24,224 nucleotides of DNA, from NCBI GenBank assembly GCA_964499705.1, contig CAZCME010000019.1, positions 62,001 to 86,224 of the forward strand. Reading direction: 5' to 3'. Shown in pieces: positions 14,501 to 24,224 of this stretch (the stretch's first letter is position 1; every line of letters begins with the position of its first letter). The notes below the pieces were generated by a model that saw nothing but the letters and a program-made list of their open reading frames with translations, made no database searches and was not told where the DNA came from. The translations under genes and the position numbers were made by a program. The DNA comes from an uncultured bacterium (GTDB lineage Bacteria; UBA8481).

Positions 14501-17500
14501 TTGGAGAGTTCGAAGCCGTAGTTGGCGTTGTTGTACGATCGATTGCGGATAAAGAGGCAGCCTCGCGCGCCATCGACGAGGAATCCGTCGTCGGTGTTGC
14601 CTTCGCTCCGGTTGTCCGCGAAGGTGCAGGTATCGGCGCCGAGTTCCGTCGCGATGCCGCGGTATCCGTTCTGCCTGGAGATATTGCCGAGGAAGCTCTG
14701 CTGGACAATGCCGGAGAGATAATATCCATACGACGCGTTCAGATCGCTCATGGTGTTGCGGATCGTGTTGTCGAGGCCGCCGCTGATGAGGAACCCGTCG
14801 AGACCGTGATTGTCAGATCGGACGCGCTCTATCGTCGCGGATTCCACTCCGCCGTTGAAGAAGATGCCGTTGTAACCGCTCGTGATGCGGAGATCCCGGA
14901 AGGTCAGGCGGGAGACATTGGCGGTGAAGATTCCGCGATAGGCGGAGGCCGTCGTGTTGTTGAAGGAAATGACTGTCGTGATCGAATCCATCCCGATGAT
15001 CCAGATCGAGCTGGTGTCGATCCGGAACGTGTCGGGCTCGTAGTAGAATCCTCCGTCGATATAGACCGTATCGCCGGTCGTGAGAAAGGGCTCGATGTCG
15101 TTAAGGGTGCGCTTTGGTTGCGACGGGAGCTGTCCGGAGTTCGCCGAGTTACCGACCGCCGAGGTGAACGAGTCGCCCGACGTCGAGGTGTCGTTGACGT
15201 ACCAGGCGTTCGGGCCGAGCGTATCCTGAAGCGAAGTTCCAGACACGATCGAGTCGGAGTAGAAGGACTGGTTTTCGAACGGAGCGATGTTATCGAACGT
15301 CGTGACGCGATAGAAGAAGGTCTGGTTCGGGGAGAGGCCGGTATCGTCCAGCATCTGCACGCCGGGTGTGCCGCCTCGGAGGATCCATCCGGTCGAGTCG
15401 GCCATGTTCGACCGGTAGACGCGGTATCCGGCAAGCGCGACGGAGGATTCGGTCTCTTCGCTCGATGTGACCGTCGCCCACGTGATCCGGATCGAACTGG
15501 ATCCGAGCGTGAACGTCGCGACGGTGTCTGGCGCACGCGGCGCGACGGTGTCGGCGAACAGCGCGGTGTCGACGATGCCGAGGCGGAAGGGGTGATACGC
15601 GATGGAGTCGCGTCTGGCGGCCGGCCAGATTTTCGCCCGGAGCGACCCGGAGTCGGACGTGCCCCACCAGTTCCTGCGCAGATCCTGCGGGTTGGCCGGA
15701 CTGCTGAAGAGGACGGAGTCCGGGTTCGCGATCGAACCGGCAAAGTTGTTCTTGTGGAAGGTGTCGGTCGTCGAGGAGCCTTCGATGCTGACGGCCCATG
15801 TCGCGTTCGAGTCGCTCGTGTTCTGCTCGAAGATGTTGTTGCTCGACGAAAGCAGGCGGAAGCCGATCGTCCCGTTGCTCGTCACACTGTTCCTGACCAT
15901 GCGCGACGCGCTCGCGTTGTTGAAAAAGAAGCCCGTCGAGCCGTTACCGATCGCGATGTTGTCGGACAGGACATTCTCGGCGCCGAATCCGAGCGATCCG
16001 AGAATGAAGCCGGAGAGCCAGTTGTTTCGCATCGTGGAGCCCGAGATCTGGTTGCCGGAAGAGCCATCGATGGAGAAACCGTTGCCATTGGTTGCGGCTT
16101 CGCCGAGGCAGTTCGTGACGGTGTTGAAATCGGAGCCGACTCGTAGCGAGAAGCCGTTATCCTTGTTGGCGACCGTCGCTACCCGCAGGAGCGAACTGGA
16201 GTCCACATTGGTCCACGTGATTCCGACGACGCCCGCGCGCACGCGCAGATCCCGGATCGTGATCCCGTTGACGCCGGAGCAGTGGAGAAATCGGTTCGAG
16301 GGAACCGTCGTGTCGTTGAAATCGATGACCGTGCTCGCCGAATCGACGCCTAGGAGCCAGAACGCGTTCGTTTCGAACGTGATCGTGTCGGTTGCGTAGT
16401 AGATCCCGGAGTCGATGAGGATCGTGTCGCCCTCCGAGACGAGACCCTCGAGGTCGTTCAGTGAGCGCTTGGGGAACGCGAGCGACTGGCCGTAGTTGTA
16501 GGAGTCGCCCATGGCGCCCGTGTAGCTGTCGCCGGAGAGATCGGTGTCGTTCACGAACCAGAAGTTGGCGCCCGTGTGCGCGACCGGCGTTACGACGAAG
16601 GGCGCCGAGTCCGAAAAGAACGACTGGTTCTCGATCGACTGGCCGTCGACCGACGAGATGCGGTAGAACGCCGTTTCCTGTGGCGCGAGTCCTGAATCGG
16701 TAAAGACGGTCGTGCCCACGGTGATTTGACCGCGATAGACCCAGAATGTGGAGTCGAGCATGTTCGAGCGATAGACGCGATACGCGGAGAGAGACGGCCC
16801 GAGCGCCTCGGATTCTTCGGAGGTCGTGACCGCGTTCCAGAAGATCCGCGCCGTGTTCGGTGACGATGGCTTCGCGGAGACGGAATCGGGCGCCTTTGGC
16901 GCGACGGTGTCGACTCCGGCGGAATCCACCGTGCCGAGCCGGAAGGGAACGTAGAGGATCTTGTCTTGTCCGGTTCCGCCGAGCTTCTTCCGGATGAGAG
17001 AGGAATCCGTCGTTCCCCACCAGTTTCGCGTGAAGTCGAAGGTGTTCGCCGTCGGATTGTAGACGCCGGAGTCGGGATTTTGGGGCGACGTGACGATGAT
17101 ATTCTTGCGGAACGCGTCGTTGTTGCAGAGCGACCCGAGCGCGAAGGCGTACTGGACGTTCGAGTCGGCGACGTTGGCGTCGAGTATATTGCCGGTCGAC
17201 GTGTTTGTGATATTGAAGCCGTGGGCTTGATTATTGCCCGCGAGGTTGCGATAGATAAAGTTGTTGTCGGAGTTGTTGGAGAAGTTGAATCCGCACTGCT
17301 GATTGAAGAGGCTTTTGTTGTTGATCCAGGTGTTACCGGTGGAAGTCCCCTGGCTGAATCCGTGATTCGTGTTCCGGGAAGAGATCGAATTCCGGACCGT
17401 GTTGTTGTTCGCGTTTCCGATATCGAGCCCGATGCCGACGTTCGATGTGATCTCGCAGTTGTTCACGGTGTTATTGGAGGCCCCGCCGGAGATCATGAGC

Positions 17501-20500
17501 GTCACGGAGGCGCCGATCGATCCGCAGTTCGAGAGCCGGACGCCGTCGATGTTGCAGTTGGTGGTGTTAAGGAGCCACACACCGCGCGCCGCGTCGCGGA
17601 CGGCCAGGTTCTGGAGCGTGCATCCGAAGACGGAGTTGAAGTAGAGACCGCGGCTTCCGAGAACAGATGTGTCGTCGAAGTCGATGGTCGTCGAGTTCGA
17701 ATCGACGCCGATGACCGAGATGTTGATTGTGTCGATCCGGAACGTGTCCGGTTCGAAATACGTGCCGGCGTCGATGAAGACCGAGTCCCCTTGGGTGAGG
17801 AAAGGCTCGATCTGGTTCCAGTACAATTTCGGGCAGTCGCGCGCGAGACCCGAGAGCGTCGTGTCGCCGGCCACTGTGGTGAACGAGTCGCCGGATGTGG
17901 AGCCGTCGTTCAAATACCAGACGTTCGGCCCCATCGTGTCCGTGGTCGTCGTGTCGGACGGGATCGAATCGGAGTAGAAGGATTGGTTTTCGCACGGAGA
18001 GTGATTGTCGAAGGAAGCGACGCGATAGAAGAAGGCCGAGTTGTTAGGGACGTTGGAGTCATCGTAAAGAAGCGTCGCCGCGGAGACCGTGCCCCGAAGG
18101 ACCCATGACGATGTGTCGCTCGTCGGAGCGCGGTAGATCCTGTACCCGGAGAGATCGACGGAAGATTCGGTTTCCTCCGAGGCGACGACGGCGTCCCACG
18201 TGACGCGGATCGTGTTCGGGTCGCATGTGTGCGCGGAGACGCTGTCCGGCGCGCGCGGCGCGACCGTGTCCGCGAGCGGCGCGGTGTCGACGATGCCGAG
18301 GCGGAAGGGGTGGTACAGGACCGAATCCCGCGTATTGGCGGGCCAGATGCGGTTGCGAATCGTCGCGGAGTCTGACGTGCTCCACCAGTTGCGCGAGAAA
18401 TCGAAGCGCGCATTCGACGTGGTAATGCAATAGACGCCGGAATCGGCGTAGGAGGAGTAGATGGACGGGATGATGACGTTCTTATGAAACGTATCGCTGT
18501 TGGAGGTTCCGCTCAGTGAAAACGCCCAATTGGCGCTGGAATCGACTGTATTCTGGTACACGCGATTGTTGCTCGAAGTGGAGAAGGAGAACCCGATACC
18601 GGAATTTCCCGAGGCCGTATTGGAAATGATCGTATCATGGAATGATGATGAAAACGCGAAGCCGCCGCCAGAATTCAAGAACGAACTGTTTTGGAGCAAG
18701 GCCTCGTTGTTCGATGCGGTGATCGCGAAACCGGAGCTTCCGTTGCCGGTCGAAATATTTTCGATAAAAGTGTTTCGGTGACTGGACGAATTGACGTCGA
18801 AGCCGCCGCCGGCGTTCCCGGCGGATTTGTTGCCGGCCAGGATATTGCGCTGGGACGCATTCAAGAGCCATCCCGTCGAATTTCCTGTCGCGAGATTCTG
18901 GAGGAACGCATTCGAGTCGCTTCCGTCTCCGGAGCTGTTATCGATGTAGAAGCCGTAGAGGCCGTGTGCGTTGGAGCGAATCCTTTCGAACAAAGAGGAA
19001 TCCGTCGCGCTCAACCAGATGCCCATGCGACCTCCCGTCACGCGAAAATCGCGGAAGACGAGTCCGTTTCTGTTCGATGCGTACAGGGCGCGCAAGGCCG
19101 ATGCTGCCGTCGAATCGAATTGCAGGACGGTGCTTGTCGAATCGACTCCGAGAAGGAGGATCCCGTTTGTGTCGATGGAAACCGTGTCCGTCAGTTGGCA
19201 GGTTCCCGAGTCGATGTAGACGGTGTCTCCTTCAGAGAGAAGCCCTTCGATTTCATTCAATGAGCTTTTCGGATACGACGGGTGTTGCCCGTGGTTCCAC
19301 GAATCGCCGATGGCGCCCGTGAAGGTGTCGCCCGCGAGGGAAGAATCGTTCACGAACCAGGCGTTGGCACCGGCATGGGAAAAAGGTGTCGTTGCGCTCA
19401 TGATCGAATCGGAGAAGAAGCTCGCGTTGACGAATGTCGCGCCGTCCAGCGTCGAGACGCGGTAGTAGTGCGTCTCGTTGGGCCCGACTCCGGAATCGAT
19501 GAAGTTGTCCGCGACGCCGGTTGCGCCGCGGAGCATCCAGTAGTTCGAATCGATCGCGTTGGACCTGTAGACGCGGAAGCCGGCGACGGCGGTCGCGGAT
19601 TCCGGTTCTTCCGAAAGCGTCACGCTCTTCCAGGTCACGCGAACTCCGGTCGGCGAAAACGCCTTTGCGGCGACGGTGTCCGGGGCTTTCGGCGCGACGG
19701 TGTCGGCGCCGATGGAAGTGTCGACGATATCGAGGCGGAAGGGGGCGAAGGGTACTCCATCGACAGCCGAGTTGATCCGCGCAGCGATGACGGCGCTGTC
19801 CGTCGTTCCCCACCAGTTGCGGGTGAACTGGAACGGCGAGCCCGCCTGGTTCCAGACGCCCGACTCCGGCGTGGCACTGGGAAGGATATTGTTCTTCTCG
19901 AATGTATCCGCGCCGCCCGAACCGAGCCGGATGGCGTAGTCGCCGCTACCGTAGATCGTGTTCTGAGCGAAGTAGTTGTTAGAGGTCGTGATGTTGAAGC
20001 CGTAGATACCGGCGTTCGCGGCCGTGTTGCCGATGAAGCGATTGCCGGGGCCGGAGATGAAGAATCCGTTGTTGGCGGACTGCGAGACGAAAACGCGCCG
20101 GAAAACGTTGTCGTTCGAACCGCCCTGGAGCAGGACTCCGTGCGTGGTGGCGTTGTTGATGACGATCTCCTCGAAGAGGCTGCTGTCTCCGGTGACGCTC
20201 AAGCCGTTGTTTCCAGGCGCGTAGATGAGGATGTAGCGGACCGTGTTGTTGTCCGAGCCCGTGCTGAACTCCATACCCACGGAACTGGACGTGTCGATCC
20301 GGATCCGCTCGATCGTCGCCGAATCGACGTTCCGGAGAAGCAGGCCATTCCGGCTGTTGCTGATCTCGAGATCACGTATCGTGATGGAGCTGATGCCCGT
20401 GCAATAGATCGTCCGCGCGGCGGCAGCGGTGTTCAGGTCGAACCGGATGACGGTGGAGGCGGAATCCATGCCGATGACGAAGATCCCGTCCGTATCGATC

Positions 20501-23500
20501 GAGAAGGTGTCCGACTCGTAGAAGAAACCTCCGTCGACATACACCGTGTCACCCGCTGTCAGGAACGGCTCGACGTCGTTCAGATAACGTTTCGGACTGG
20601 AACCGGACAATCCGTAATTCCCGGATAACCCGACCGCGGATGTGAACGAATCTCCGGACGTCGACGTGTCATTGACGTACCAGACGTTCGGAATCGCCGT
20701 GTCGATGACCGTGATGACGCCCGCGTTCTGCCGCGCGGATGTCGGGCCAGTCTCCTCGTCGAAGGAATCGATGACGAAGGCGGGGATGCGCGCCTGGAAC
20801 GTGTCCTTGTTCGTCGCGTTCGGAGCGAAGTCCACGGCGATGAGGAATGTGTCGCCATTGGCGCCGATCGGAATCGCCGCCGCGAAGGTGTCCCATCGGC
20901 GCGGATCGAGTGTGTCGCCGTAGAGTAGTGACACAAACGTGTCCACGCCCAGGTCGAACCGCAGGTTGGCGTTGGCGTCGCGGGCCAGCCGGACGGCGAG
21001 GATGTCGTTCGTATCAAGATTGCCGTCGCTTGCCAGGGTGAAGCGCGTGAGAGTGTCGCCGCCCGCAGCCGTGTCGGCCAGGATGTAGAGCGCCATGACG
21101 GTCACGCTTGGGACTCCTTGCCCGACAGTAACCGACGGAATCGTGTCCGCGATGACGACGGTGACCGTGTCGACCTGGCCCTCGCCGGGGAAAAAGTGCG
21201 AGAAGTGGTTGATCGCGATGGAGAAGGAATCCGCCGTTCGGATGTAGGATGCGGCCGACATTCCGGAGTCCGATTGCGTGACATCGTACCAGTCGCTGTC
21301 GCCCGTGTTCAGCCAGAAGAGTCCCGTCCGATTCGGATTCAGTCCCGTGTTCTTGAATTCGAACGTGAGCGTCGGCGACTCGCCGAAATTCCAGTAGGTG
21401 TCTGGCCGTTTCGCGCCGGTCGAATCGAAGACGGTCACCTCGAGGCGCCACGGAGCGCCGTAGGAATAACCCCGGATCCGCGACGTGTCGGAGGCGCCGA
21501 ATGTCGCGTCCGTGACGCGGCGAACCCGGACGATGTTGCCGGTATCCGAGAACGGAATCTTTACGAGCCAGGTTTCGCGAAAGTCCGGAGCACAGACGGT
21601 GAGCGAGAGCGTATCCGCGCTCGACTGGCCGAAGTGGACGGAGTTGTTCGAGTCGAGGATGTTCAGAACGAGCGTATCATACTGGCCGGTGACACCCGGT
21701 GGCGCGGACGTGTCGGCCGTCAAGCCTCCCGCCGCGGCGGACGGGATCGAGTCGGAGTAGAAGGACTGATTTTCGGTGACGGTCGCGTCGAAGGCCGCGA
21801 CACGATAGAAATGCGTGACGCCCGCCGTCAGGCTGGAATCCGTATAGCTGTTCGTGTTTCCGGTTCGACCCCGAAGTTCCCAGAATGTCGAGTCCGCGGC
21901 ATTCGAACGATAGATCGCGAATCCCTGGAGCGAGACGGAAGCTTCCGGCTCCTCGGATGCGCTGACGTTCGACCACGCGACCTGGACCGTCGTCGCGGAG
22001 GCGCCGCTTGCCGTGACCGTGTCTGGCGCCTTCGGTGCTACCGTATCGCCGCCCGATACCGTGTCGACGACGCCCAGTCGGTACGGCGTGTAGACGATCG
22101 AGTCGCGCGCCGCCGGCGGCGTGATCCGGCCGCGGATGATCGAGGAGTCCGTCGTTCCCCACCAGTTGCGCGTCGCGGCGATACGGGCGACGCCGGCATG
22201 GTAGACGCCGGAATCCGGGCGGTATGACGGCGGGAGGATGATGTTCTTTTCGAATGTGTCCGACGTCGATCCGATGTCGATGTTGACGGCCCAGCCATCG
22301 TTCGAGTCGACCTGGTTCTGCGCGAAATAGTTTCCGCTCGAGGAGCCCACGTAGAATCCTTCGCCGTAATTCCTCCGGATGATGTTGGAACGGAACGAGT
22401 TGTTGTCCGACGTCGACGAGACCGAGAAGGCCGTGTTGAAGTTGTCCTCGACGGTGTTTCCCGTGAAGACATTAGACGTGGAAGTCGACATCACGAAGGC
22501 GGCGCCCGAGTTGGCGTGGAGACGGAGATTCGCGAAGTTGTTGGATCCGGACGCGGCGAGCTGGACGCCGAAGGCGGTGTTGCCGGTGATGGATCCTCCA
22601 TTGAAAGTATTGTTCGAGGAAGCGTTGATGATGACGCCGTTGGCGCCGTTGCCGGACGAGGCGACGTTCAGGAAGAGATTCGCGTCGGAGTTTGTCGTCA
22701 AGCCGATGCCGTGGTCGGCGTTCGTGTCGGCGCGCACGTTCCTGACCGTCGAAGCATCGACGTTCTCGAACCAGAGGCCTCGGAATCCGTTGCCGACGCT
22801 GAAATCGCGGAGCGTCAATCCCGCGACGTTCTGCGCGTAGATGGCCCGCGCCGGGCCTCCGCCGCTCTGATCGAACTGGATCCTCGTCGATCGGGAATCG
22901 ACTCCCACGAGGAAGATTCCGCTTGTGTCGATCCGGAACGTGTCGTTCTCGATGAAGATTCCGGAGTCGACGAAGATCGTGTCGCCCGCGGAGAGTTTTC
23001 CTTCGAGGAAATTGAGCGTCCTGAAGGGGGACGAGCGGAAGTAACCGACATTCGTGTCGGCGCCCGGGGCGCTCGTGTAGGAGTCTCCGGCGGTGGAAGT
23101 ATCGTTGACATACCAGACATTCTGACCGGTCGTATCCGGCGTCTCCTGCTGGACGGCGTTCCAGAGGAGATACCTCGAGGTCTGCGCTCCCACGCCGTCC
23201 CCTCCGCCGATCACGACGAGGCTGTCGCCGATTCGTCCTCCCACCGGAAACATCCGCGCGGTCGGCAGCGAAAACTCGGGAGTCCAGGTGTTGCTGATGA
23301 CATTGAAGATCGTGACCGTGCTGGTTTCCGTGCCGAGCCTCGAACCGCCGATCGTGTAGATCGAGTCGCCGCTCGTGATGAACAGTAAGCCCTGCCGGAA
23401 GGTCGTCATGTTCGTTTTCAATGTCCAGGCGCCGGTCGCAGGATTGAAGCTGCGCAACGAGCGCGTTTCATTTCCAGCCGCGTCCGCTCCACCGCCGACA

Positions 23501-24093
23501 TAGATCTTCCCGGCCACGACCGCGACGCCGAATTGCGTCAACGGATAGGGAAGCGCGGGACCGACTCTCCATTGCGAATCCGTTCCCAGCCGGAAGACCT
23601 CGACGCTGTCGCAGGCCGTGAAAGATGCGTCGTATCCGCCGATGACGTAGAGCGTGTCACCGAGAACGGCCATGCCGTGGTTGTTCCTGGGCGTCAGGAG
23701 CGGCGGGAGCGTATACCAGGAATCCGTGAGGCGATACCAGGCGCTGACATATCCGACGGTCGAGCTTGAAAAAGTCTCGCCCCCCGAGACGAAGAAGGTG
23801 TCGCCGTACCAGGCGCCTGCTGTCCCGACGCGGGGGATCGGAATGTTCTGAAGAGCCTGAGCTGTCGAGAGTCCGTATCTCGTGAACGTTCGCGAGTCGT
23901 CGGTCGAGGTTCGGGCGCCCACGATGTAGATCGAATCGTCGAAGACGGCGAAGGCTCCGCCATCGCGCGCAGGGGAGATAGCGGCTCCGGTTTCCCATAT
24001 GACGGCGGCGGATGCGGGCGGAGGTGCGAAGAGGATGAAAAAGAGCGCGCAGAAGTAACCTGCATGCCTACAAATCCGTTTCTTATGACTCAA
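1..24093 (-). CDS. Giant secreted/surface multidomain protein (>=8,031 aa, C-terminus beyond the window): Kelch propeller + 12 x [right-handed parallel beta-helix + FN3] + DxNxN-loop beta domains + tandem FN3-like domains; probable adhesin or glycan-interacting surface protein
   Basis: Manual translation begins MSHKKRICRHAGYFCALFFILFAPPPASAAVIWETG at TTG 24093 and is in the same frame at the left edge (...PAILAPRNGTSTTVTTPSFRVAAVADTGPDTTVRYVFQAS). All segments I decoded in between are coherent protein in this frame. I found no minus-strand ORF in this frame in the track, which is what is expected if there is no in-frame stop. The nearest upstream in-frame stop is TGA at 24193-24195. An alternative in-frame TTG exists at 24120. 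Confidence 0.95.
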   Translation of the reverse strand, partial: MSHKKRICRHAGYFCALFFILFAPPPASAAVIWETGAAISPARDGGAFAVFDDSIYIVGARTSTDDSRTFTRYGLSTAQALQNIPIPRVGTAGAWYGDTFFVSGGETFSSSTVGYVSAWYRLTDSWYTLPPLLTPRNNHGMAVLGDTLYVIGGYDASFTACDSVEVFRLGTDSQWRVGPALPYPLTQFGVAVVAGKIYVGGGADAAGNETRSLRSFNPATGAWTLKTNMTTFRQGLLFITSGDSIYTIGGSRLGTETSTVTIFNVISNTWTPEFSLPTARMFPVGGRIGDSLVVIGGGDGVGAQTSRYLLWNAVQQETPDTTGQNVWYVNDTSTAGDSYTSAPGADTNVGYFRSSPFRTLNFLEGKLSAGDTIFVDSGIFIENDTFRIDTSGIFLVGVDSRSTRIQFDQSGGGPARAIYAQNVAGLTLRDFSVGNGFRGLWFENVDASTVRNVRADTNADHGIGLTTNSDANLFLNVASSGNGANGVIINASSNNTFNGGSITGNTAFGVQLAASGSNNFANLRLHANSGAAFVMSTSTSNVFTGNTVEDNFNTAFSVSSTSDNNSFRSNIIRRNYGEGFYVGSSSGNYFAQNQVDSNDGWAVNIDIGSTSDTFEKNIILPPSYRPDSGVYHAGVARIAATRNWWGTTDSSIIRGRITPPAARDSIVYTPYRLGVVDTVSGGDTVAPKAPDTVTASGASATTVQVAWSNVSASEEPEASVSLQGFAIYRSNAADSTFWELRGRTGNTNSYTDSSLTAGVTHFYRVAAFDATVTENQSFYSDSIPSAAAGGLTADTSAPPGVTGQYDTLVLNILDSNNSVHFGQSSADTLSLTVCAPDFRETWLVKIPFSDTGNIVRVRRVTDATFGASDTSRIRGYSYGAPWRLEVTVFDSTGAKRPDTYWNFGESPTLTFEFKNTGLNPNRTGLFWLNTGDSDWYDVTQSDSGMSAASYIRTADSFSIAINHFSHFFPGEGQVDTVTVVIADTIPSVTVGQGVPSVTVMALYILADTAAGGDTLTRFTLASDGNLDTNDILAVRLARDANANLRFDLGVDTFVSLLYGDTLDPRRWDTFAAAIPIGANGDTFLIAVDFAPNATNKDTFQARIPAFVIDSFDEETGPTSARQNAGVITVIDTAIPNVWYVNDTSTSGDSFTSAVGLSGNYGLSGSSPKRYLNDVEPFLTAGDTVYVDGGFFYESDTFSIDTDGIFVIGMDSASTVIRFDLNTAAAARTIYCTGISSITIRDLEISNSRNGLLLRNVDSATIERIRIDTSSSVGMEFSTGSDNNTVRYILIYAPGNNGLSVTGDSSLFEEIVINNATTHGVLLQGGSNDNVFRRVFVSQSANNGFFISGPGNRFIGNTAANAGIYGFNITTSNNYFAQNTIYGSGDYAIRLGSGGADTFEKNNILPSATPESGVWNQAGSPFQFTRNWWGTTDSAVIAARINSAVDGVPFAPFRLDIVDTSIGADTVAPKAPDTVAAKAFSPTGVRVTWKSVTLSEEPESATAVAGFRVYRSNAIDSNYWMLRGATGVADNFIDSGVGPNETHYYRVSTLDGATFVNASFFSDSIMSATTPFSHAGANAWFVNDSSLAGDTFTGAIGDSWNHGQHPSYPKSSLNEIEGLLSEGDTVYIDSGTCQLTDTVSIDTNGILLLGVDSTSTVLQFDSTAASALRALYASNRNGLVFRDFRVTGGRMGIWLSATDSSLFERIRSNAHGLYGFYIDNSSGDGSDSNAFLQNLATGNSTGWLLNASQRNILAGNKSAGNAGGGFDVNSSSHRNTFIENISTGNGSSGFAITASNNEALLQNSSFLNSGGGFAFSSSFHDTIISNTASGNSGIGFSFSTSSNNRVYQNTVDSSANWAFSLSGTSNSDTFHKNVIIPSIYSSYADSGVYCITTSNARFDFSRNWWSTSDSATIRNRIWPANTRDSVLYHPFRLGIVDTAPLADTVAPRAPDSVSAHTCDPNTIRVTWDAVVASEETESSVDLSGYRIYRAPTSDTSSWVLRGTVSAATLLYDDSNVPNNSAFFYRVASFDNHSPCENQSFYSDSIPSDTTTTDTMGPNVWYLNDGSTSGDSFTTVAGDTTLSGLARDCPKLYWNQIEPFLTQGDSVFIDAGTYFEPDTFRIDTINISVIGVDSNSTTIDFDDTSVLGSRGLYFNSVFGCTLQNLAVRDAARGVWLLNTTNCNIDGVRLSNCGSIGASVTLMISGGASNNTVNNCEITSNVGIGLDIGNANNNTVRNSISSRNTNHGFSQGTSTGNTWINNKSLFNQQCGFNFSNNSDNNFIYRNLAGNNQAHGFNITNTSTGNILDANVADSNVQYAFALGSLCNNDAFRKNIIVTSPQNPDSGVYNPTANTFDFTRNWWGTTDSSLIRKKLGGTGQDKILYVPFRLGTVDSAGVDTVAPKAPDSVSAKPSSPNTARIFWNAVTTSEESEALGPSLSAYRVYRSNMLDSTFWVYRGQITVGTTVFTDSGLAPQETAFYRISSVDGQSIENQSFFSDSAPFVVTPVAHTGANFWFVNDTDLSGDSYTGAMGDSYNYGQSLAFPKRSLNDLEGLVSEGDTILIDSGIYYATDTITFETNAFWLLGVDSASTVIDFNDTTVPSNRFLHCSGVNGITIRDLRVRAGVVGITWTNVDSSSLLRVATVANKDNGFSLRVGSDFNTVTNCLGEAATNGNGFSIDGSSGNQISGSTMRNNWLSGFILGSLGFGAENVLSDNIAIGNGSTGFFFNNASASRMVRNSVTSNGTIGFRLLSSSNNIFEQNTSDSNATWAVSIEGSSTTDTFHKNNFAGSIANPDSVLFSSPANPQDLRRNWWGTSDSGSLRAKIWPAARRDSIAYHPFRLGIVDTALFADTVAPRAPDTVATFTLGSSSIRITWATVTSSEETESSVALAGYRVYRSNMADSTGWILRGGTPGVQMLDDTGLSPNQTFFYRVTTFDNIAPFENQSFYSDSIVSGTSLQDTLGPNAWYVNDTSTSGDSFTSAVGNSANSGQLPSQPKRTLNDIEPFLTTGDTVYIDGGFYYEPDTFRIDTSSIWIIGMDSITTVISFNNTTASAYRGIFTANVSRLTFRDLRITSGYNGIFFNGGVESATIERVRSDNHGLDGFLISGGLDNTIRNTMSDLNASYGYYLSGIVQQSFLGNISRQNGYRGIATELGADTCTFADNRSEGNTDDGFLVDGARGCLFIRNRSYNNANYGFELSNATDNLFTQNTIDSNGVWGILLGGTTARDTFQKNNFVSGIVQPESFVVNFTTRSFDFQRNWWGTTDSSVIRNRIEPAARDSITYHSFRLGAVDTNPTVDSVAPNAPDTVAARALSPTQIRVTWKTSAGSESPETATIVSTYYVYRSNTPDSTFWERRGAMNGDAYIDSGIAPLDTWYYRVTATDGSGTFDNQSFFSDSIPGDRTPASHAGANVWYVNDTSTAGDSFTSAVGDTWNHGQALDRPKRGLNELEGLLTEGDTVYIDSGVYYPTDTITVETNSIWLIGADSRSTIITFDNTTTAGMRAIYATNLTNLTFKDFTVRTGRYGILWNNVDLSRCERVLSDSHSFVGFGLESGSDTNQLVDNTTSGNGQVGFNLDASSNNTLSTNVSSGNNNLGIQLTNNSNGNMLISNRSFGNTWYGIQLNATSNNNTLASNSSSGNGNLGIVIANSSGNILTSNTSSANSSNGIHLSGSSSNTLTGNISSGNGGIGVNLSGSSGNTVSQNTVDSNASWGIVIDGSSTADTFRKNYWRGQPSGPAADSAVRIDAIGTFDMTRNWWNTSDSGVIRLRIYPPSRDSALYHPFRLGIVDTSLLADTVAPRAPDTVAALGQTATTIQVTWSAVTSSEESETAVGLAGYRVYRSTSPDSTAWELRGTTASTTLTDSGLSQGLTRYYRVTAFDNIAPFENQSFYSDSIAAGTTTIDTLFPNVWYVNDTSTSGDSFTSAIGNSANTGLSIAFPKRTLNDIEPFLTEGDTIYIDGGFYYEPDTFRIDTNSIWVLGMDSTSTEIKFNSITVGQYRCVFADTQTNLTIRDLRIRSGYVGIDWCNVDSSVIERVRTDAHGSDGIYIHSNSSWNTFASNRSESNAGSGFWIVTSDTNAITENLCVANAQGGIVFAGSRGNTLIANRAILNIGSGFHQNASGAINCENNFFRGNLADRNSGHGFNLDPAYSSIFDGDTAVQNGQNGFRLNFASNNRITGIVSRDNLGHGIEHSSSADNYVATSTFDSNTGYAVNLVSASSETYVKNMIASSPAYPDSGVRNATGNRFDFTRNRWIWNGLGVDDSGVIRNMIWGSTRDSVTYIPFRLGTIDTALLADTVAPRAPDTVTVAAFGVNFLRVTWSTVSASEEAETSVGLNGYKVYRSATRDTTFWLLRGAIPSGTNTYDDSGLGASTAFFYRVTAFDNHAPFENQSFFSDSIPADTTSLDTSGPNVWYVNDTSTAGDSFTAAIGSSSNSGLSISSPKRTLNDVEPFLTMGDTVYVDSGVYYEADTFRIEANSVWIIGADSLNTIIDFVDSSFTAFRMIYAINKSGITLRDLQVTHGYRGVWWLNVDTSTIQRVKASTNNENAVYLDAGSESNTLTGNHATSGSSSGAKGFVVAANFNTLSNNLADLNKGAGFRYDGSFGMLLDNRSESNTQQGYYFNAARRNEIAGNIATGNAQENYVFNNSSDTNRIHGNIARNNGLSGFQIFNSSFNVLSQNTIDSPGTWAFEVIGISSITTGDSFNKNIVIPSPYRPDSGVYNSIGNRFDFQRNWWGTTDSAAIRRKLGGTKPDSISYVPFRLGLVDTAPLADTVAPRAPDTVAVLGVGPAIIRVTWSSVSASEESETTIDLSGYRVYRAPNRDTSSWLLRGAVGTGTTTYDDSGLSAQQGFYYRVTAFDNHAPYENQSFFSDSIPSDSTTPDSSGPNVWYVNDTSTTGDSYTSAIGNDANHGLLRSAPKRTITSVMNQLTIGDTVYIDAGTYAETVVIDTNHIHLRGVDSNLTVIDPPGPAATGGLYAVFADSQVGLDIRDLGLTGAFNGVRWINVDSSWIRMDSVTACGDKGIYLSDGCDTNLLNLNIASSNLVNGIYLGAGVDNILNANTVRQNTNDGIVAFVGADRTIITSNVVAGNLWSGIALYGIGNVARQNLVSNNLAHGVYLNTATNNLVVSNLVDSNRQYQVFITGPTSGDTVQKNNMRTSPAFPESGVFNGSTVAGVMFSFIRNAWNTQDSGNVRNMIWGSARDSVVYLPFRFGIVDTTINGDSVAPRAPDTVAVAAFGPNTLRVTWSSVTTSEEPESSVNLTFYRIYRAPNRDTTLWLLRGAVGAGALSYDDSGIGMLTGYYYRVTAADNSGIQNQSFFSDSIPSDTTTLDTTVPNIWYVNDTATTGDGFTSATGSSSNNGLAPSSPLRTLNDVEPFLTEGDTILLDAGDYYEPDTFRIDTNCIWIVGRGADSTIISFGDNTVSGQKAIFAVNRSYLTFKDFRVTAGRYGISWANVDSSQLNSIQVDGAGLYGFWLTNGSNNNALSACTSALNGNAGMVIQSSNGNTIFLSAFVQNGNAGLYFTGSSGCTVAGIATCTNAGAGLELNNSTGNAITGSLSYGNSSHGFLIGSSSNGNTFDSDTSSQNGGAGFELASSNNNILVRNYAQRQGHGYELTTGSNGNRLSHNIASNNSISGFHLSSDSNNTLTQNQCDSNAWAFRFIGSSANDTVTKNNIHPPAALPDSGVINLTANSVRMTRNWWSTRDTGAIGARIWGSGRAFVQHTPFRFGPADTAIASDSVAPRAPDTVTAAGVGPSTIRVMWGTVTASEEAEGTTNLAGYRVYHSPTADTPLWTLLGQTASPTFDDTTLAASQTRHYRVTSFDSSAIENQSYLSDSIAIAMTTGDTSGPNVWYVNDTSISGDSWTTATGNDFYFGLTPATPKRTIAAVMNQLSTGDTVYIDAGLYTETIVIDTNSIWLIGKDSLVTVIDPPGSNIGIYADTQTSISIQFLGVRGATTGIQFRNISTFTLQSDSVSYNSSNGIDVTDSSTGGLITGCYTRNNTLTGIRIGVGNSHLVFSNTAQSNSTGISALTSADSITIRQNQLLGNSAGLSIAANRSSILESNAFAQVNSTGISANGARSLVIRNNSCDSTGSNNMDLIGCTDVVIFGNTFNFANTHGLDVRGAAESILIRGNQFRSNRRAGLKLSAGNSITVEQNDFQGNDTGVLVRSSVGSMLLISKNNFHFDTHQFENETGGARNVVRNWWGTIDSAAIRGSFYGAGAESITFLPYRLGIVDTAASADTTAPDGPDTVAAFGFTESSILITWSAVTSIEESNGGAIGLSGYRAYSSRIRDTSLWILRGAVGPATLAFVDSGLGIFETYFYRVTAFDAAARENQSFFSDSISAAQTPDSTPPSVPVLMAPSSLLDTNLLPIPFSWSSSSDSSGIQGYRLQVDTSGAFASPFVDSFILFTNASLTLTANDSYFWRIIAVDSANNTAISANRFFRVDTTLPAASLQVSPADGANTSAIAIAFTWTASADSISGLLGYKLQIDSTGLFSSLVVDSFTTATTLAETLPPGDTYYWRVLAIDSAQNVNTFGTRSFRIDTASAVAPANIAVHPSLPAGANINPVGVDLTALISVSVVGDTADMLQMFTVDLEGNAGAMNRTESVFLYRDANRNATLDTSVDTVLASYPFITGQTYRFGLGWMIGSGDSFIVAARFRDTTPVGETVRASVPALGIKTGNRDTSPSVSISAPGLFTISYVASTIVSVDQATPANGSITAVDTDRTVVMALSIGGAATGDTLTQFHVRLAGNAGAASVVDSIALYKDGNENGTYEAGLDTIAALLPLVSGTTFGSSSLSATLPDFKSGFDSFLVLVTLRDTATPGDTLRATIPSGMVKTQLRETAPAADASSPATFTVAAAFTTLAVDPLKPAGASISPSGTDLTAVMAMTIAGASNDSLTVLSVAFNGNAGQAAQLDTVFLYRDADRSATLTAGDTALATLTLSASAWRLTSPWALGSTGLDSFLIVVSIRDTVPGSDTLRAYIPANAVKTTNRETVPSSATYAPATFLTESGVSTIVRILVNANTLSETISPLNVDLSRVMSLTIAGGAGDTLQNFGVTLNGNAGAASRLEYILLYRDLNKNGNFDSGAEQYISGLINTSGQTYKINFLGCTLGVTGADSFLVVLSYRDTATSGETVHAKIPAGSCTTSLKTGGPAIAFAAPAAFTIFDLNPPNPFTLLSPAANHDTSTTAVNLRWNASSDGGSGLSAYKAQVSRFANFSTLVADTSTGLSRSLTPLLSPASGGVDSFYWRIQAYDANGNSKASTDTGFFRLDLIAPSKPASSQPPANHDTIATAVGFAWSAATDTFSGLKQYRLQFASDAAFASITIDSTVGLNLAASRTLAASATYYWRVLAEDTAGNTAASDSKRLTIIGAGPTAPTLLAPEDRVETRSTTFTFSWSASTDSFSTIAGYRLQIDTSSSFTSPAIDSANGLATSTTRTLNANATYYWRILVTNAASLTTNSSSRILSTDTICTVALFSPPDATTTSDSRPVFLWLSNMTGVHKDTFTFQLATDTIVPTIVLASTQKATSFQPGATLAGNTYYWRVIAADTAGNSDTSNWRSVTIDTGGVIVDTSPPSSFSLMEPGNNSYTNVASVTFQWALTTDTPSGVSQYRIQVDDDSAFASMLHDTTVASSIDTKSLPLPANAVLYWRVIAIDGSSNQTLSQTTRAVITDTVPPAAPSPLIRPTSGEDTSVGTVAFRFTASSDSGTGASVSGLRRYIVQVDTSGTFSSPVLTGEGTSATIVVAGFSQNTWYWRVVAEDTAGNTTASVFDTFQIISVPPSVPVPVSPISGQFVGDTTISFDWTDAANLGAPLKRYILHASADSTFATIPISTATADTTSASSGAGFSAGTWYWRVAAEDTLGNVSSFSGVANFTLETSPPPKPSFTAPVANLIARPGPTTFSWVASGSLPASGLNGYNLRISTLLDSTVADTSFITSATSYSASINNFAETTYITRVRARSNAGTFGSWSDTIAIRFDSTPPPAPAILAPRNGTSTTVTTPSFRVAAVADTGPDTTVRYVFQAS
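2581..4450 (-). repeat. Four tandem ~150-160-aa beta-rich domains with a LY(R/K)DxNxN(G/A) putative Ca2+-binding loop
   Basis: Copies at about 3994-4450, 3514-3993, 3058-3513 and 2581-3057 share D(T/S/M)L....V...GNAG, then LYRDANRNAT / LYKDGNENGT / LYRDADRSAT / LYRDLNKNGN, then DSF(L/I)(V/I), RDT, and T(L/V)xAx(I/V)P. Confidence 0.8.
4459..5055 (-). repeat. Two tandem FN3-like 'Y(Y/F)WR' domains
   Basis: DSTPPSVPVLMAP...FSWSSSSD...GYRLQVD...SYFWRIIAVDSANN and SPADGA...FTWTASAD...GYKLQID...TYYWRVLAID. Confidence 0.8.
5056..6564 (-). repeat. Module 12 (subtype C): beta-helix + FN3
   Basis: GPNVWYVND...PKRTIAAVMNQLSTGDT...ETIVIDT...TVIDPPG; RNWWGTID; DTTAPDGPDTV; NQSFFSDS. Confidence 0.85.
6565..8106 (-). 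repeat. Module 11 (subtype A): beta-helix + FN3
   Basis: PNIWYVND...PLRTLNDVEPFLTEGDT; RNWWSTRD; DSVAPRAPDTV; NQSYLSDS. Confidence 0.85.
8107..9453 (-). repeat. Module 10 (subtype C): beta-helix + FN3
   Basis: GPNVWYVND...PKRTITSVMNQLTIGDT...ETVVIDT...TVIDPPG; RNAWNTQD; DSVAPRAPDTV; NQSFFSDS. Confidence 0.85.
9454..10881 (-). repeat. Module 9 (subtype A): beta-helix + FN3
   Basis: GPNVWYVND...PKRTLNDVEPFLTMGDT; RNWWGTTD; DTVAPRAPDTV; NQSFFSDS. Confidence 0.85.
10882..12390 (-). repeat. Module 8 (subtype A): beta-helix + FN3
   Basis: FPNVWYVND...PKRTLNDIEPFLTEGDT; variant cap DFTRNRWIWNG; DTVAPRAPDTV; NQSFFSDS. Confidence 0.85.
12391..13884 (-). repeat. Module 7 (subtype B): beta-helix + FN3
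   Basis: SHAGANVWYVND...GDTWNHGQ...LNELEGLLTEGDT; RNWWNTSD; DTVAPRAPDTV; NQSFYSDS. Confidence 0.85.
13885..15219 (-). repeat. Module 6 (subtype A): beta-helix + FN3
   Basis: GPNAWYVND...PKRTLNDIEPFLTTGDT; RNWWGTTD; DSVAPNAPDTV; NQSFFSDS. Confidence 0.85.
15220..16581 (-). repeat. Module 5 (subtype B): beta-helix + FN3
   Basis: AHTGANFWFVND...GDSYNYGQ...LNDLEGLVSEGDT; RNWWGTSD; DTVAPRAPDTV; NQSFYSDS. Confidence 0.85.
16582..17934 (-). repeat. Module 4 (subtype A): beta-helix + FN3
   Basis: GPNVWYLND...WNQIEPFLTQGDS; RNWWGTTD; DTVAPKAPDS; NQSFFSDS. Confidence 0.85.
17935..19380 (-). repeat. Module 3 (subtype B): beta-helix + FN3
   Basis: SHAGANAWFVND...GDSWNHGQ...LNEIEGLLSEGDT; RNWWSTSD; DTVAPRAPDS; NQSFYSDS. 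Confidence 0.85.
19381..20691 (-). repeat. Module 2 (subtype A): beta-helix + FN3
   Basis: PNVWYVND...LNDVEPFLTAGDTVYVDGG; RNWWGTTD; DTVAPKAPDTV; FFSDS. Confidence 0.85.
20695..21180 (-). repeat. DxNxN-loop beta-sandwich-like domain, isolated copy
   Basis: VMALYI...GDTLTRFTL...VRLARDANANLRFDLGVD...GDTFLIAV...DTFQARIPA has the same motif order as the four tandem copies at 2581-4450. Confidence 0.7.
21181..21720 (-). other. Single-copy ~180-aa domain ending in an HFS motif (GPS/GAIN- or ZU5/Nup98-like autoproteolysis candidate)
   Basis: ...SPTLTFEFKNTGLNPNRTGLFWLNTGDSDWYDV...SFSIAINHFSHFFPG. Codons: H 21205-21207, F 21202-21204, S 21199-21201. Confidence 0.6.
21739..23127 (-). repeat. Module 1: parallel beta-helix (PbH1/NosD-like) + FN3
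   Basis: NVWYVNDTSTAGDSYT cap; Asn/Gly-rich ~22-aa rungs (SSNNTF...GN...G); RNWWGTTDS; PYRLGVVDT...DTVAPKAPDTV; FN3 signature VQVAW...AIYRS...YTDSSL...FYRVAAFD...NQSFYSDS. Confidence 0.85.
23131..24003 (-). other. Kelch-repeat beta-propeller (6 blades)
   Basis: Six repeats with the Kelch pattern (PR...hhhhGG...W): SPARDGGAFAVFDDSIYIVGA, IPRVGTAGAWYGDTFFVSGGE, LTPRNNHGMAVLGDTLYVIGGY, LPYPLTQFGVAVVAGKIYVGGG, MTTFRQGLLFITSGDSIYTIGGS, LPTARMFPVGGRIGDSLVVIGGG. Confidence 0.88.
24007..24093 (-). other. Sec/SPI-type signal peptide (residues 1-29)
   Basis: MSHKKRICRH (basic n-region), AGYFCALFFILF (hydrophobic h-region), APPPASA|AVIW (A-x-A cleavage site). No lipobox at the predicted cleavage site. 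Confidence 0.8.
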
Positions 24094-24200
24094 ATCCAGC
24101 GCCAGAACTCCGTGAGACAAGTATATTTTTATGTCAGTTTGAAAGCTAATGAATTGCAAGGGTAATTCGGTCTCATTTTTTACCGTGAAAAATCACATTT
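24094..24200 (-). promoter_or_regulatory. AT-rich upstream region with a candidate sigma70-type -10 box (TATACT, 24120-24125) and weak RBS (GGAG, 24108-24111)
   Basis: GC drops sharply relative to the CDS. TATACT lies 26 nt upstream of the TTG at 24093. GGAG is 14 nt from the start, longer than typical. No convincing -35 at 17-bp spacing (TAGCTT). Confidence 0.45.
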
Positions 24201-24224
24201 TCAGGGAGAGAGGCGGGGAAGTCT

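Follow-up and report, generated by a model that had tools for sequence, protein, structure and literature searches.

An uninterrupted open frame runs on the minus strand from base 24159 to base 1 of the window, by which we mean the whole 24,224-nucleotide stretch of DNA that was analyzed. Counted from a TTG start codon, the full gene in the whole genome encodes 8,636 residues, and 8,031 of these are encoded in the window; the last 605 residues, which include a basal R-F-S domain and a type-IX-style tail, fall beyond it. The protein begins with a plausible signal peptide, as read from the translation (basic n-region, hydrophobic core, and A-S-A-A end), followed by a Kelch propeller region; of the 94 PDB chains that this region matched at E ≤ 0.001, most are Kelch propellers (Table 1). 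The beta-helix module behind it is the first of 12 copies; the 11 others lie at residues 1141-6341 and share 33-45% identity by self-BLAST. Tandem Repeats Finder returned 0 rows on the window.

Table 1. Features of the giant gene within the window, ordered from the predicted N terminus
Feature	Residues	Window positions	Strand	Basis or remark
Start codon TTG 24093 and signal peptide	1-29	24007..24093	-	Translation
Kelch beta-propeller, tip of the head	~82-300	23194..23850	-	Pfam Kelch_1 E 1.9e-20 and related Kelch models
Module 1, right-handed beta-helix with Fn3-like end	330-785	21739..23106	-	Pfam Beta_helix 4.3e-26, NosD 6.5e-19
HFS domain, ~175 residues, probable divergent ZU5/GPS type	~797-970	21184..21705	-	Single copy
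Trp935, invariant column	935	21289..21291	-	Alignment A2; within the most conserved 12-residue stretch, 926-937
His963-Phe964-Ser965; predicted scissile bond F964/S965, S965 putative nucleophile	963-965	21199..21207	-	Conservation and aligned motifs
Post domain, putative first folded domain of the C-terminal fragment, 5 residues after S965	970-1135	20689..21186	-	Post-domain profile
Stalk: modules 2-12, further post-like and Fn3/Ig-like domains	1141-8031	1..20673	-	Gene continues past the window

The first-pass annotation of this DNA had described a single-copy domain that breaks the module array after module 1 and ends in H963-F964-S965, counted from the TTG. Both parts of this description were borne out: self-BLAST of residues 785-975 found no second copy (next best E 0.043), and the motif indeed closes the domain, ending ~5 residues ahead of the next one. 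The HFS domain, as we call it here, separates module 1 from the eleven beta-helix modules that follow in the secreted protein and lies ~7,540 residues away from the C-terminal anchor. The strand after the site is short, reading S-H-F-F and then P-G-E-G, and residues 904-970 contain no cysteine. The triplet HFS is present once in the 8,031 window-encoded residues, and two H-L-S triplets (3666 and 5635) elsewhere in the protein both fall within beta-helix repeats. We regard the motif as more than a chance occurrence because it is conserved; its occurrence in itself is not the basis.

The HFS domain and the post domain behind it form a recurring cassette. At every internal-type site listed except P0008, the match to the post-domain profile begins 7-11 residues past the histidine, and four further post-domain copies were located, at residues 6541-7146 by self-BLAST and at 6573-7174 by the profile. 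The post domain matched no PDB sequence, also when its profile was used, and we found no detectable likeness of the domain to anything. The idea that it is an internalized type-IX tail, the giant being a fusion of cargo genes, was rejected on the hhalign result (0.1%).

At the other end of the protein, the tail scored 14.6 bits against TIGR04183 (cut-off, 23) and E 0.022 against CHU_C, and it has a local match to the C terminus of PorZ (E 5e-8); twenty other open reading frames (ORFs) of the source genome pass TIGR04183. The next gene, whose start lies within the final bases of the giant gene, encodes a PorV/PorQ-family barrel (157.9 bits; cut-off, 90). The genome also contains a SprA-like ORF with a match below cut-off, and no PorU-like sortase was found in it above cut-off.

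Profile relationships of the HFS family

The ZU5/GPS superfamily includes the GAIN domains of adhesion GPCRs, the MAIN domains of bacterial surface proteins, the ZU5 domains of PIDD and FIIND proteins, and Nup98; its defining fold is a beta-sandwich in which the bond to be cut lies in a tight turn ahead of the final strand. MAIN (Microbial Autoproteolysis INducing) domains are GAIN-like and have been described in, for example, Bacillus subtilis YfkN (Brogan and Rudner, bioRxiv 10.64898/2026.05.12.724683). The HFS family is rare, with 16 matches at E ≤ 0.001 among 1,835,955,588 representatives and 13 real clusters. Three weak, repeat-like matches from the representative search (P0011, P0015, and P0017) were dropped because the family profile matched only P0012 of the four proteins given. 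Alignment A2 comprises 19 sequences that are 21-55% identical to the window's copy, and the family profile matches residues 789-995 of the giant (window 21109-21729).

Direct searches with the HFS domain returned no Pfam family at E ≤ 1, and the ZU5, GPS, and GAIN models were absent among 14 members at E ≤ 10. NCBIfam gave no match, and against PDB sequences the single sequence gave one chance match (E 0.77) and the family profile none. When the Pfam ZU5 (PF00791) and GPS (PF01825) models were run over the whole genome, neither matched at the window coordinates. In the Atlas, the homologue P0006 carries only feature matches below 0.9. An Atlas model of another homologue, P0032, is of low confidence (pTM 0.29); its domain residues have neighbors at TM 0.50-0.59, including a cluster with ZU5 on 41% of its members and SLH-anchored Bacillota proteins, which we treat as a lead only.

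A link to the superfamily came instead from a second family in the same genome. In 18 of the 23 tail-bearing ORFs of the source genome, an H-[FL]-[ST] motif stands ~25-30 residues ahead of the tail, and 13 of the 23 are followed at the 3' end by a PorV/PorQ-like ORF. Comparison by hhalign of A2 with A4, an alignment of 18 of these pre-tail domains from the source genome, gave 93.9% (E 1.6e-7), and the H-F-S/T motifs fell opposite each other. This alignment is collinear over 176 columns under relaxed settings, global mode gave 93%, and A2 against a merged 25-sequence profile gave 94.4%. Among the controls, reversed A4 gave 0.1%, ten column shuffles 0.0-0.6%, and the post domain against A4 0.1%.

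The pre-tail family in turn leads outward. Although the Pfam ZU5 model run over the genome finds neither the HFS nor the pre-tail domains, the A4 profile matches the outside proteins P0039 and P0041 over the same stretch that passes Pfam ZU5 (31.1 and 31.9 bits; cut-off, 21). A2 compared directly with seven such outside sequences gave 72% (E 3.4e-5), again with HFS aligned. Pfam GPS weakly matches 3 of the 18 A4 members end to end, at 17.7, 16.0, and 15.7 bits (below the cut-off of 22.5); these are the only GPS matches in the whole genome at E ≤ 1, an E-value at which 7 of 14 control genomes also match. Against PDB sequences, the A4 profile gave one chance match (E 0.52).

The kinship to GAIN, ZU5, and Nup98-type domains that the first-pass annotation had proposed is supported at the level of sequence, where profile comparison links the family to Pfam ZU5 and weakly to GPS. 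Membership in the superfamily rests on this two-step profile chain, since the HFS domain has no direct match to Pfam or PDB sequences. Because of the profile link to the second, pre-tail family, we read the HFS domain as a divergent ZU5/GPS (GAIN/MAIN-type) joint. Judging from their sequences, most type-IX-style cargo proteins of the source genome carry such a ZU5/GPS-type domain at the anchor.

The giant itself is an exception at that position. Its basal domain (genome C19:60513-61133) reads R-F-S, with Arg replacing His, and is distantly related to the HFS domain: the basal R-F-S region aligned to A4 at 91.6% (E 8.2e-7), Arg falling opposite His, and direct hhalign comparison of the HFS family with the basal R-F-S region of the giants gave 0.2%. 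The anchor-side joint lacks the histidine in the giant gene, in two paralogues in the source genome (G000), and in four of five giant-type relatives from other genomes. We do not call the basal copy dead, because Nup98 H862A/Q still cleaves and CARD8 carries Ser at the His position, according to PMC3210808.

Conservation of the motif and the possibility of a noncleaving spacer

Only two columns are invariant among the 19 sequences of A2, Trp935 and His963. After His comes F (12 sequences) or L (7), and then T (10) or S (9). Of 26 copies matched by the profile, 25 reach the site, and every one of these reads H-[FL]-[ST]; with the C33 copy of the source genome (H-N-G) counted in, the motif is kept in 25 of 26 copies spanning the site, so the conservation in homologues on which the first-pass annotation had staked its proposal is indeed found. 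Of the two stretches of the domain that are most conserved, one contains the motif. In a tree of 24 copies, Ser and Thr have switched at least twice, and the window's copy is a lone Ser inside a Thr clade.

Related proteins vary in number and placement of the domain. One paralogue has three copies and an orthologue-like giant from another genus has two, and S8 or C11 peptidases are encoded upstream of the domain in homologues. A sister subtype (P0027-P0031), in which all members read HFT, adjoins a type-IX-style tail directly upstream of it. The domain order predicted for this subtype is the canonical one, namely ectodomain, self-cleaving-type domain, and anchor.

Conservation of this kind bears on whether the domain still cuts. 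It could be a ZU5/GPS-type fold that no longer does so and serves as a structural spacer or binding module, its H-F-S strand kept for folding. Precedent for this exists, as Fu et al. 2023 describe GAIN domains that do not cleave and report the same of many eukaryotic GAIN and ZU5 domains, and one family member in the source genome itself (C33 of G000) reads H-N-G, having lost the nucleophile. However, His is invariant in A2, and the residue at the nucleophile position is Ser or Thr, and no other, in 25 of the 26 copies, down to 21% identity and through repeated switching between the two. A Ser/Thr-only pattern is what would be expected of a catalytic nucleophile, not of a packing residue, and the high conservation of the motif stretch likewise speaks against a spacer, a reading that we consider unlikely.

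A predicted detachable tip on a giant fiber

What we observe directly is the motif with its conservation, the profile link to ZU5/GPS-type domains, and the architecture, along with the type-IX-style tail and the adjoining barrel gene. On balance, it is likely that residues ~797-970 form a sequence-divergent ZU5/GPS cis-autoproteolytic beta-sandwich domain acting as a self-cleaving joint that sheds the head. By analogy with characterized relatives, the head is probably held noncovalently and sheddable. The C-terminal type-IX-style tail and the adjoining PorV/PorQ-family barrel gene give a predicted topology that fits a distal, sheddable tip.

In the mechanism that we propose, which infers the fold and the lasting association of the pieces and borrows cleavage and release by force from those relatives, Ser965 would attack the F964-S965 bond in the periplasm after folding, with His963 assisting and a buried Phe964 serving as strain anchor. 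An N-to-O acyl shift followed by hydrolysis would divide the chain in two. The predicted head (Kelch, module 1, Fn3-like region, and most of the HFS domain) would span residues 30-964, that is, 935 residues and 99.6 kDa, a size that presumes removal of the signal peptide after residue 29, as we read it from the translation. The remaining stalk would comprise 7,672 residues and 815 kDa, and the earlier estimate of a ~935-residue head and a stalk of more than 7,000 residues was arithmetically right. The stalk would start with the strand S-H-F-F, which would remain in the sandwich of the head, with the post domain rigidly next. The type-IX-style tail and the dedicated PorV/PorQ-like barrel would keep the fiber on the outer membrane, making the head the distal tip. 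Were the head bound and the fiber pulled, the strand would slip out and the head would be left behind, so that the joint would behave as a detachable tip or mechanical fuse.

Self-cutting could also be real while the pieces stay together, the nick serving maturation as a flexible joint, as strain relief, or in the folding or translocon passage of the 8,636-residue chain. Lacking an export tail, the head must remain bound to the stalk at least during export, and the three joints in the paralogue and two in the orthologue-like giant could equally be hinges. In contrast, the best-studied relatives cut for release: as described in the preprint, MAIN ectodomains leave cells only if cleavable, and cleaved GAIN domains are detached by a few piconewtons according to Fu et al. 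2023. In both the sister subtype and the second family the domain adjoins the anchor, a position in which a hinge would make little sense. We find a purely maturational nick quite unlikely. It is highly improbable that H-x-x-H (His963 and His966) is a metal or ligand site of an unrelated beta-rich domain whose likeness to self-cleaving domains is coincidental, since, although His966 is kept in 16 of the 19 A2 sequences and the domain has no direct database match naming it, the ZU5/GPS profile link aligns the motif itself and beats all controls, and His966 is replaced by Ile or Asn in 3 of the 19, while every sequence retains Ser/Thr965.

Returning to the self-cleaving joint, a tentative extension is that the giant fibers of this lineage are pre-cut, segmented "break-away" adhesins. 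Each would contain one to three internal HFS/HFT-plus-post joints, with segments held together by a borrowed beta-strand; load would shed the tip (or, in the paralogue, successive segments) and the megadalton stalk would stay on the cell. Loss of the histidine from the anchor-side joint suggests that the breaking point moved from the base of the fiber to its tip.

In these proteins a rare and divergent subfamily, one that escapes current family models, is placed behind the head of megadalton fibers in an uncultured diderm lineage. The fibers are presumably exported by a type-IX-style route, on which the head must ride out on a predicted noncovalent link. If the cut is real, it would offer the cell a simple means of discarding the adhesive tip alone and not the whole of a very costly fiber, extend the idea of a force fuse to outer-membrane-anchored proteins, and provide a compact cassette of ~340 residues for engineering releasable surface display. 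If the break-away reading is also true, these would be the first self-cleaving mechanical fuses placed within a bacterial adhesin, as well as the first to be linked to type IX secretion.

Comparison with known self-cleaving systems

A literature search combining type IX secretion, GAIN domain, autoproteolysis, and adhesin returned nothing relevant by title. Among the matches listed for ZU5 together with a type-IX term, only PMC9424270 contained both, and it appears to deal with Gram-positive toxins; among those listed since 2024 for GAIN domain, bacteria, and autoproteolysis, only the MAIN preprint concerns bacteria. Working self-cleaving GAIN-type domains in bacteria are described only in that 2026 preprint, where they adjoin the wall anchor of Gram-positive proteins and release the ectodomain as a whole. 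What is new here is that the domain lies internally, close to the head, and that paralogues contain it in multiple copies.

MAIN domains offer one close parallel. As reported in the preprint (bioRxiv 10.64898/2026.05.12.724683), the cut falls between F and S of HFS and the products stay associated, S-to-A blocks cutting, and S-to-T restores it; the family was gathered by PSI-BLAST-level similarity to the YfkN MAIN domain, for which the preprint gives a TM score of 0.63. Shared with the HFS family are an H-F-S-type motif ending a beta-rich domain, occurrence in large proteins that are secreted, anchored at the surface, and equipped with adhesion and enzyme domains, a proposed role in releasing the outer part, and interchangeable Ser and Thr. 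However, the MAIN order of signal peptide, adhesion or enzyme domains, MAIN, and anchor is not that of the giant, in which 7,672 residues follow the site and the domain lies near the N terminus, whereas in nearly all MAIN proteins described there the anchor is adjacent; this order is found instead in the sister subtype P0027-P0031 and in the A4 family. The HFS domain also occurs up to three times per protein and has a dedicated post domain (P0008 excepted), and the anchors differ, being a type-IX-style tail with a PorV/PorQ-like barrel here and sortase or SLH in MAIN proteins. Type IX secretion is absent from the main text of the preprint, although its supplementary list of 15,000 proteins may include type-IX-tailed or internal cases.

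The GAIN/GPS domains of adhesion GPCRs and polycystin-1 resemble the HFS domain in their H-[L/F]-[S/T] site and conserved upstream Trp, as well as in a short post-site strand that stays in the sandwich and in detachment by force, both of which we propose here. The HFS domain differs in having no cysteine pairs and in being followed by a soluble beta-rich domain rather than 7TM or 11TM, and Pfam GPS matches only the sister pre-tail family, below cut-off. In the ZU5 domain of PIDD and the ZU5-UPA (FIIND) of NLRP1 and CARD8, as presented by D'Osualdo et al. 2011 (PMC3210808) and Zhang et al. 2012 (PMC3482391), H-F-S or S-F-S likewise ends ZU5 and a second beta domain, following at once, keeps the pieces together, and PIDD has several cleaving copies in one protein. 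The outside relatives of the linked pre-tail family also pass Pfam ZU5. Unlike the giant, however, PIDD, NLRP1, and CARD8 are cytosolic eukaryotic signaling proteins, and the post domain that stands in the place of UPA gave no detectable match to anything.

A similar architecture is described for the ZU5 domains of bacterial polymorphic toxins and large surface proteins, with an autopeptidase near the N terminus of very large secreted filament-like proteins and a proposed role in releasing the filament or parts of it at the cell surface, as outlined in PMC3482391. Those proteins are RHS/TcdB-type toxins, whereas here there is no toxin domain and the predicted cut would free the tip and not the base; the HFS subfamily is, moreover, missed by the Pfam ZU5 model. 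Within the source genome, the HFS domain of the window is an internal subfamily distinct from the cassette of pre-tail ZU5/GPS-type domain, tail, and PorV-like barrel, and the giant carries both kinds, its pre-tail copy with Arg in place of His.

Layout of the giant gene

A single open frame on the minus strand spans the entire window and encodes, in the genome, a protein of which 605 residues lie outside the window. The contig end adjoins the window end, leaving just 131 bases (window 24094-24224) upstream of the start codon. Two non-module domains, an HFS domain and then a post domain, separate module 1 from module 2, and self-BLAST identified 11 further module copies at residues 1141-6341 with 33-45% identity. 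The first-pass annotation had placed here a single-copy domain ending in an HFS motif and likened it to self-cleaving domains. Its coordinates and residue numbering agree with the translation, and the domain is single-copy in this protein: the next self-BLAST match has an E value of 0.043, and the family profile gives one significant match in the open reading frame (ORF). The HFS triplet alone means little; the case rests on conservation and homology.

Features of the giant gene, its partners, and comparable proteins (residues counted from TTG 24093; G000, this genome; G002, another genome of the phylum set; C and L, contigs and loci)
Feature	Position	Strand	Description
Signal peptide	encoded from TTG 24093	minus	from translation
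Six-bladed Kelch propeller	after signal peptide		Pfam Kelch_1, E 1.9e-20; Kelch structures in PDB
Module 1	residues 330-785	minus	right-handed beta-helix with Fn3-like end, 456 residues
HFS domain	residues ~797-970	minus	C-terminal end His963-Phe964-Ser965
His963-Phe964-Ser965	window 21199-21207	minus	
Post domain	residues 970-1135; window 20689-21186	minus	~166 residues
Basal ZU5/GPS-type domain	G000:C19:60513-61133 (L006:2513-3133)	minus	just before tail
PorV/PorQ-family barrel gene	G000:C19:59164-60189 (L019:11164-12189)	minus	157.9 bits, cut-off 90
Pre-tail H-[FL]-[ST] domains (18)	G000 L020-L037, e.g., C8:31495-32115, C1:68820-69440		
Window's giant			8,636 residues: head, module, cassette, 11 modules
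Paralogue	G000:C22		11,547 residues: propeller, post, module, cassette, 2 modules, cassette, 2 modules, cassette, further modules
G002 giant, another genus			9,033 residues: post, module, cassette, module(s), cassette, 5 modules
Second giant	G000:C19:31316-50200	as window's giant	6,295 residues, same contig, no cassette

The post domain, for which Pfam and PDB-sequence searches gave no match, is present in five copies in the window's giant (the four others at residues 6573-7174, window about 2572-4377) and in 13 copies in the C22 paralogue, some of them preceded by an HFS domain and others not. At all internal-type sites listed, it starts 7 to 11 residues past the His, the homologous protein P0008 being the exception, and the internal cassette formed by the two domains is kept as one unit. 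The first cassette comes after the first module in all three cassette-bearing giants. The second giant on the window's contig, ~10 kb downstream, is built from the same module family, has its own PorV/PorQ-like partner, and carries R-F-S at its base; the intervening stretch contains two NHL/TIG-repeat genes.

Conservation of the HFS domain

Current models do not recognize the HFS domain: there was no Pfam match at E ≤ 1, NCBIfam gave nothing, and no PDB sequence was matched with either the single sequence or the family profile as the query. None of the self-cleaving Pfam families matched in the 14 family members scanned at E ≤ 10. A full HMMER pass over 1,835,955,588 representative proteins returned 16 matches at E ≤ 0.001, among which P0011, P0015, and P0017 were discarded as repeat-like matches without confirmation by the family profile, leaving 13 clusters, one of them the window's own protein. 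The domain is carried by proteins of uncultured bacteria, labeled, where a label is given, Candidatus Hydrogenedentota, "bacterium," or Candidatus Dependentiae; within the genome set of the window's phylum, the domain is found in four of five species genomes. NCBI assigns Hydrogenedentota to the FCB group. Family members also occur downstream of an S8 peptidase (P0008 and P0010) or flanking a C11 peptidase (P0007), and a sister subtype (P0027-P0031, all H-F-T) sits in the canonical position directly before the tail.

In an alignment of 19 family sequences with 21-55% identity to the window's copy, only Trp935 and His963 are invariant, and the best-conserved 12-residue stretches surround the Trp (926-937) and the motif (961-972). 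The residue after His963 is Phe in 12 sequences and Leu in seven, and the next is Thr in 10 and Ser in nine. When the profile was run on 23 given sequences, it matched 26 copies, many of them part of its own alignment; all 25 that reach the site carry H-[FL]-[ST], and P0012 stops short of it. A further relative, at G000:C33:2577-3197 in a 2,185-residue ORF, was found with P0027 as the query (E 5e-46), beyond the reach of the profile at 1e-5. This pre-tail subtype copy reads H-N-G where its five relatives elsewhere read H-F-T, and it looks like a family member minus the nucleophile. The motif on which the first-pass annotation built its argument is hence conserved in 25 of the 26 copies covering the site, the H-N-G copy being the exception.

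A tree of 24 full-length copies, calculated with the Ser/Thr column masked, requires at least two Ser/Thr switches and places the window's copy as a lone Ser within a Thr clade. Retention of a hydroxyl residue while its identity drifts between Ser and Thr is the pattern expected of a nucleophile. It is unlikely, beside this pattern, that the HFS domain is a structural domain without a cut, a reading for which the H-N-G copy speaks. An unrelated His-x-x-His ligand site is hardly credible.

Pre-tail domains and the ZU5/GPS superfamily

The type IX-style tail start was sought by regular expression in all ORFs of this genome, yielding 25 ORFs, of which two (307 and 383 residues) were removed by eye as not tail-like. 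About 25 to 30 residues before the tail, the 23 remaining ORFs carry H-[FL]-[ST] (18 ORFs, including one of 9,673 residues on contig C1), R-F-S (three), E-F-S (one), or H-N-G (one). The 18 H-[FL]-[ST] domains share a conserved Trp, an Asp, and F-A-V-L past the motif, and four have a cysteine pair like that of the GPS motif of adhesion GPCRs; because they were picked for having the motif, the invariant His of their alignment is true by construction. Pfam GPS matched three of the 18 along the full length of its 45-position model, at 17.7, 16.0, and 15.7 bits, below the cut-off of 22.5. At E ≤ 1 its matches across the whole genome are confined to these three places, and at that threshold some match also turns up in seven of 14 control genomes. 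The Pfam ZU5 model matched none of the pre-tail domains in this genome. Pre-tail domains of this type occur in each of the five phylum-set genomes (20, 9, 12, 9, and 9 matches). Two such domains share one frame in a 5,865-residue ORF (G000:C23:30624-30959 and 33183-33791), and likewise at G004:C36 and G003:C112 in two other genomes, and tandem use is not restricted to the HFS subfamily, given these two-copy proteins.

A search of the large protein collection with the pre-tail profile yielded 11 proteins (E ≤ 0.001), six of which were covered by a Pfam scan (ZU5 cut-off, 21 bits). P0039 and P0041 pass ZU5 at 31.1 and 31.9 bits, each directly upstream of an adjoining Por_Secre_tail; P0044 falls slightly under the cut-off at 17.1 bits, and P0038, P0040, and P0042 have no match. 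The pre-tail and ZU5 matches span identical residues, and the pre-tail match ends H-F-S. In 10 of these proteins, the aligned site is H-F-[ST] in nine and N-F-S in P0040; in P0042 the domain is paired with an SLH anchor, the Gram-positive arrangement.

Profile-profile comparison joins the HFS family to the pre-tail domains with 93.9% probability (E 1.6e-7); the 60 aligned columns, roughly residues 904-970 of the window's protein, bring together both motifs and the Trp region. The alignment is collinear across 176 columns at a relaxed threshold, and global mode gives 93% probability. Merging the pre-tail set with seven outside sequences gives 94.4%, and those seven by themselves give 72% (E 3.4e-5, 79 columns, HFS aligned). 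As controls, the column-reversed pre-tail alignment gave 0.1%, ten column shuffles gave 0.0-0.6% (best score, 17.5 versus 54.2), and the post domain against the pre-tail alignment gave 0.1%. An Atlas model of the homologue P0032 is of low confidence (pTM 0.29; mean pLDDT 0.62), and the structural neighbors of its HFS-domain residues are a lead that allows no family name; among the ten listed, at TM 0.50-0.59, are one cluster from Bacteroidota in which 41% of members carry ZU5, two Bacillota clusters with SLH anchors, and an Elusimicrobiota cluster in which 16% of members have type IX tails. ZU5, GPS, and the Nup98 domain form one superfamily (Zhang et al. 2012, PMC3482391). Through this two-step profile chain, and not a curated model or fold, the window's HFS domain is in all likelihood a divergent member of it.

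The same protein carries a second domain of this type at its base. The last 200 pre-tail residues of the three giants of this genome align to the pre-tail set (91.6%, E 8.2e-7, 82 columns) with Arg in the His column and without the Trp; all three read R-F-S before the tail. Against the HFS family there was no direct link (0.2%). Among eight loci examined in relatives, five are giant-type, and their basal site is K-F-S in G001, G004, and the G002 giant (a carrier of two internal cassettes), Q-F-S in G003:C77, and H-F-S in G003:C66, so that four of five lack the basal His. It is striking that carriers of internal cassettes are without it. Loss of the His need not abolish cleavage: in Nup98, the H862A/Q mutants are cut nearly as well as normal, and in CARD8 this position is Ser (D'Osualdo et al. 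2011, PMC3210808).

Anchoring, proposed head release, and known systems

The final 90 residues of the giant bear a weak likeness to the type IX sorting domain (TIGR04183, 14.6 bits; cut-off, 23), and the PorZ C terminus matches the tail locally (E 5e-8). The likely start codon of the adjoining PorV/PorQ-family gene lies 7 bases inside the giant gene's end, and a similar barrel ORF stands at the 3' end of 13 of the 23 tail-bearing ORFs. Elsewhere in the genome, 20 ORFs pass TIGR04183, a SprA-like ORF scores below its cut-off, and no PorU-like sortase scored above the cut-off. The tail likeness and the adjoining barrel therefore suggest that the giant fiber is very probably exported and held via its C terminus, with the Kelch head at the far end.

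The window's HFS domain probably cleaves itself, judging from its conservation and relationships. It would fold in the periplasm, where Ser965 would attack the Phe964-Ser965 bond; the resulting 99.6-kDa head and 815-kDa stalk would be exported together by a type IX-style route, held by the short strand past the cut and by the post domain rigidly joined to it. If a bound head came under tension, the strand could then be pulled out, just as a few piconewtons suffice to detach GAIN domains after cleavage (Fu et al. 2023). We lean towards this whole sequence of periplasmic self-cutting, joint export, and tension-driven release. That head release, as the first-pass annotation envisaged, is the function of the joint is possible, at slightly less than an even chance. 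A role of the cut in maturation or flexibility, with no shedding of the head, is quite unlikely; in MAIN, a bacterial GAIN-like domain, the products of cleavage at the Phe-Ser bond of HFS remain associated, and MAIN proteins can be stripped from cells only if cleavable (Brogan and Rudner 2026 preprint). In the same preprint, replacing the Ser with Ala abolishes cleavage, and Thr at this position restores it.

The kind of domain proposed here is already known, as ZU5 in bacterial surface proteins since 2012, where it lies near the N terminus in giant RHS toxins and is also found in further large surface proteins (PMC3482391), and as MAIN, with experiments, since 2026. Type IX secretion is absent from the main text of the MAIN preprint, and the literature searched yielded no paper on self-cleaving domains in type IX cargo, although the preprint's supplementary tables may list some. 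What is new is a subfamily that current models miss, the internal place of a self-cleaving-type domain behind a head, as many as three HFS-domain copies per protein, an obligate post domain (at the internal-type sites listed, P0008 excepted), and the pairing of an internal HFS domain with a basal copy without His.
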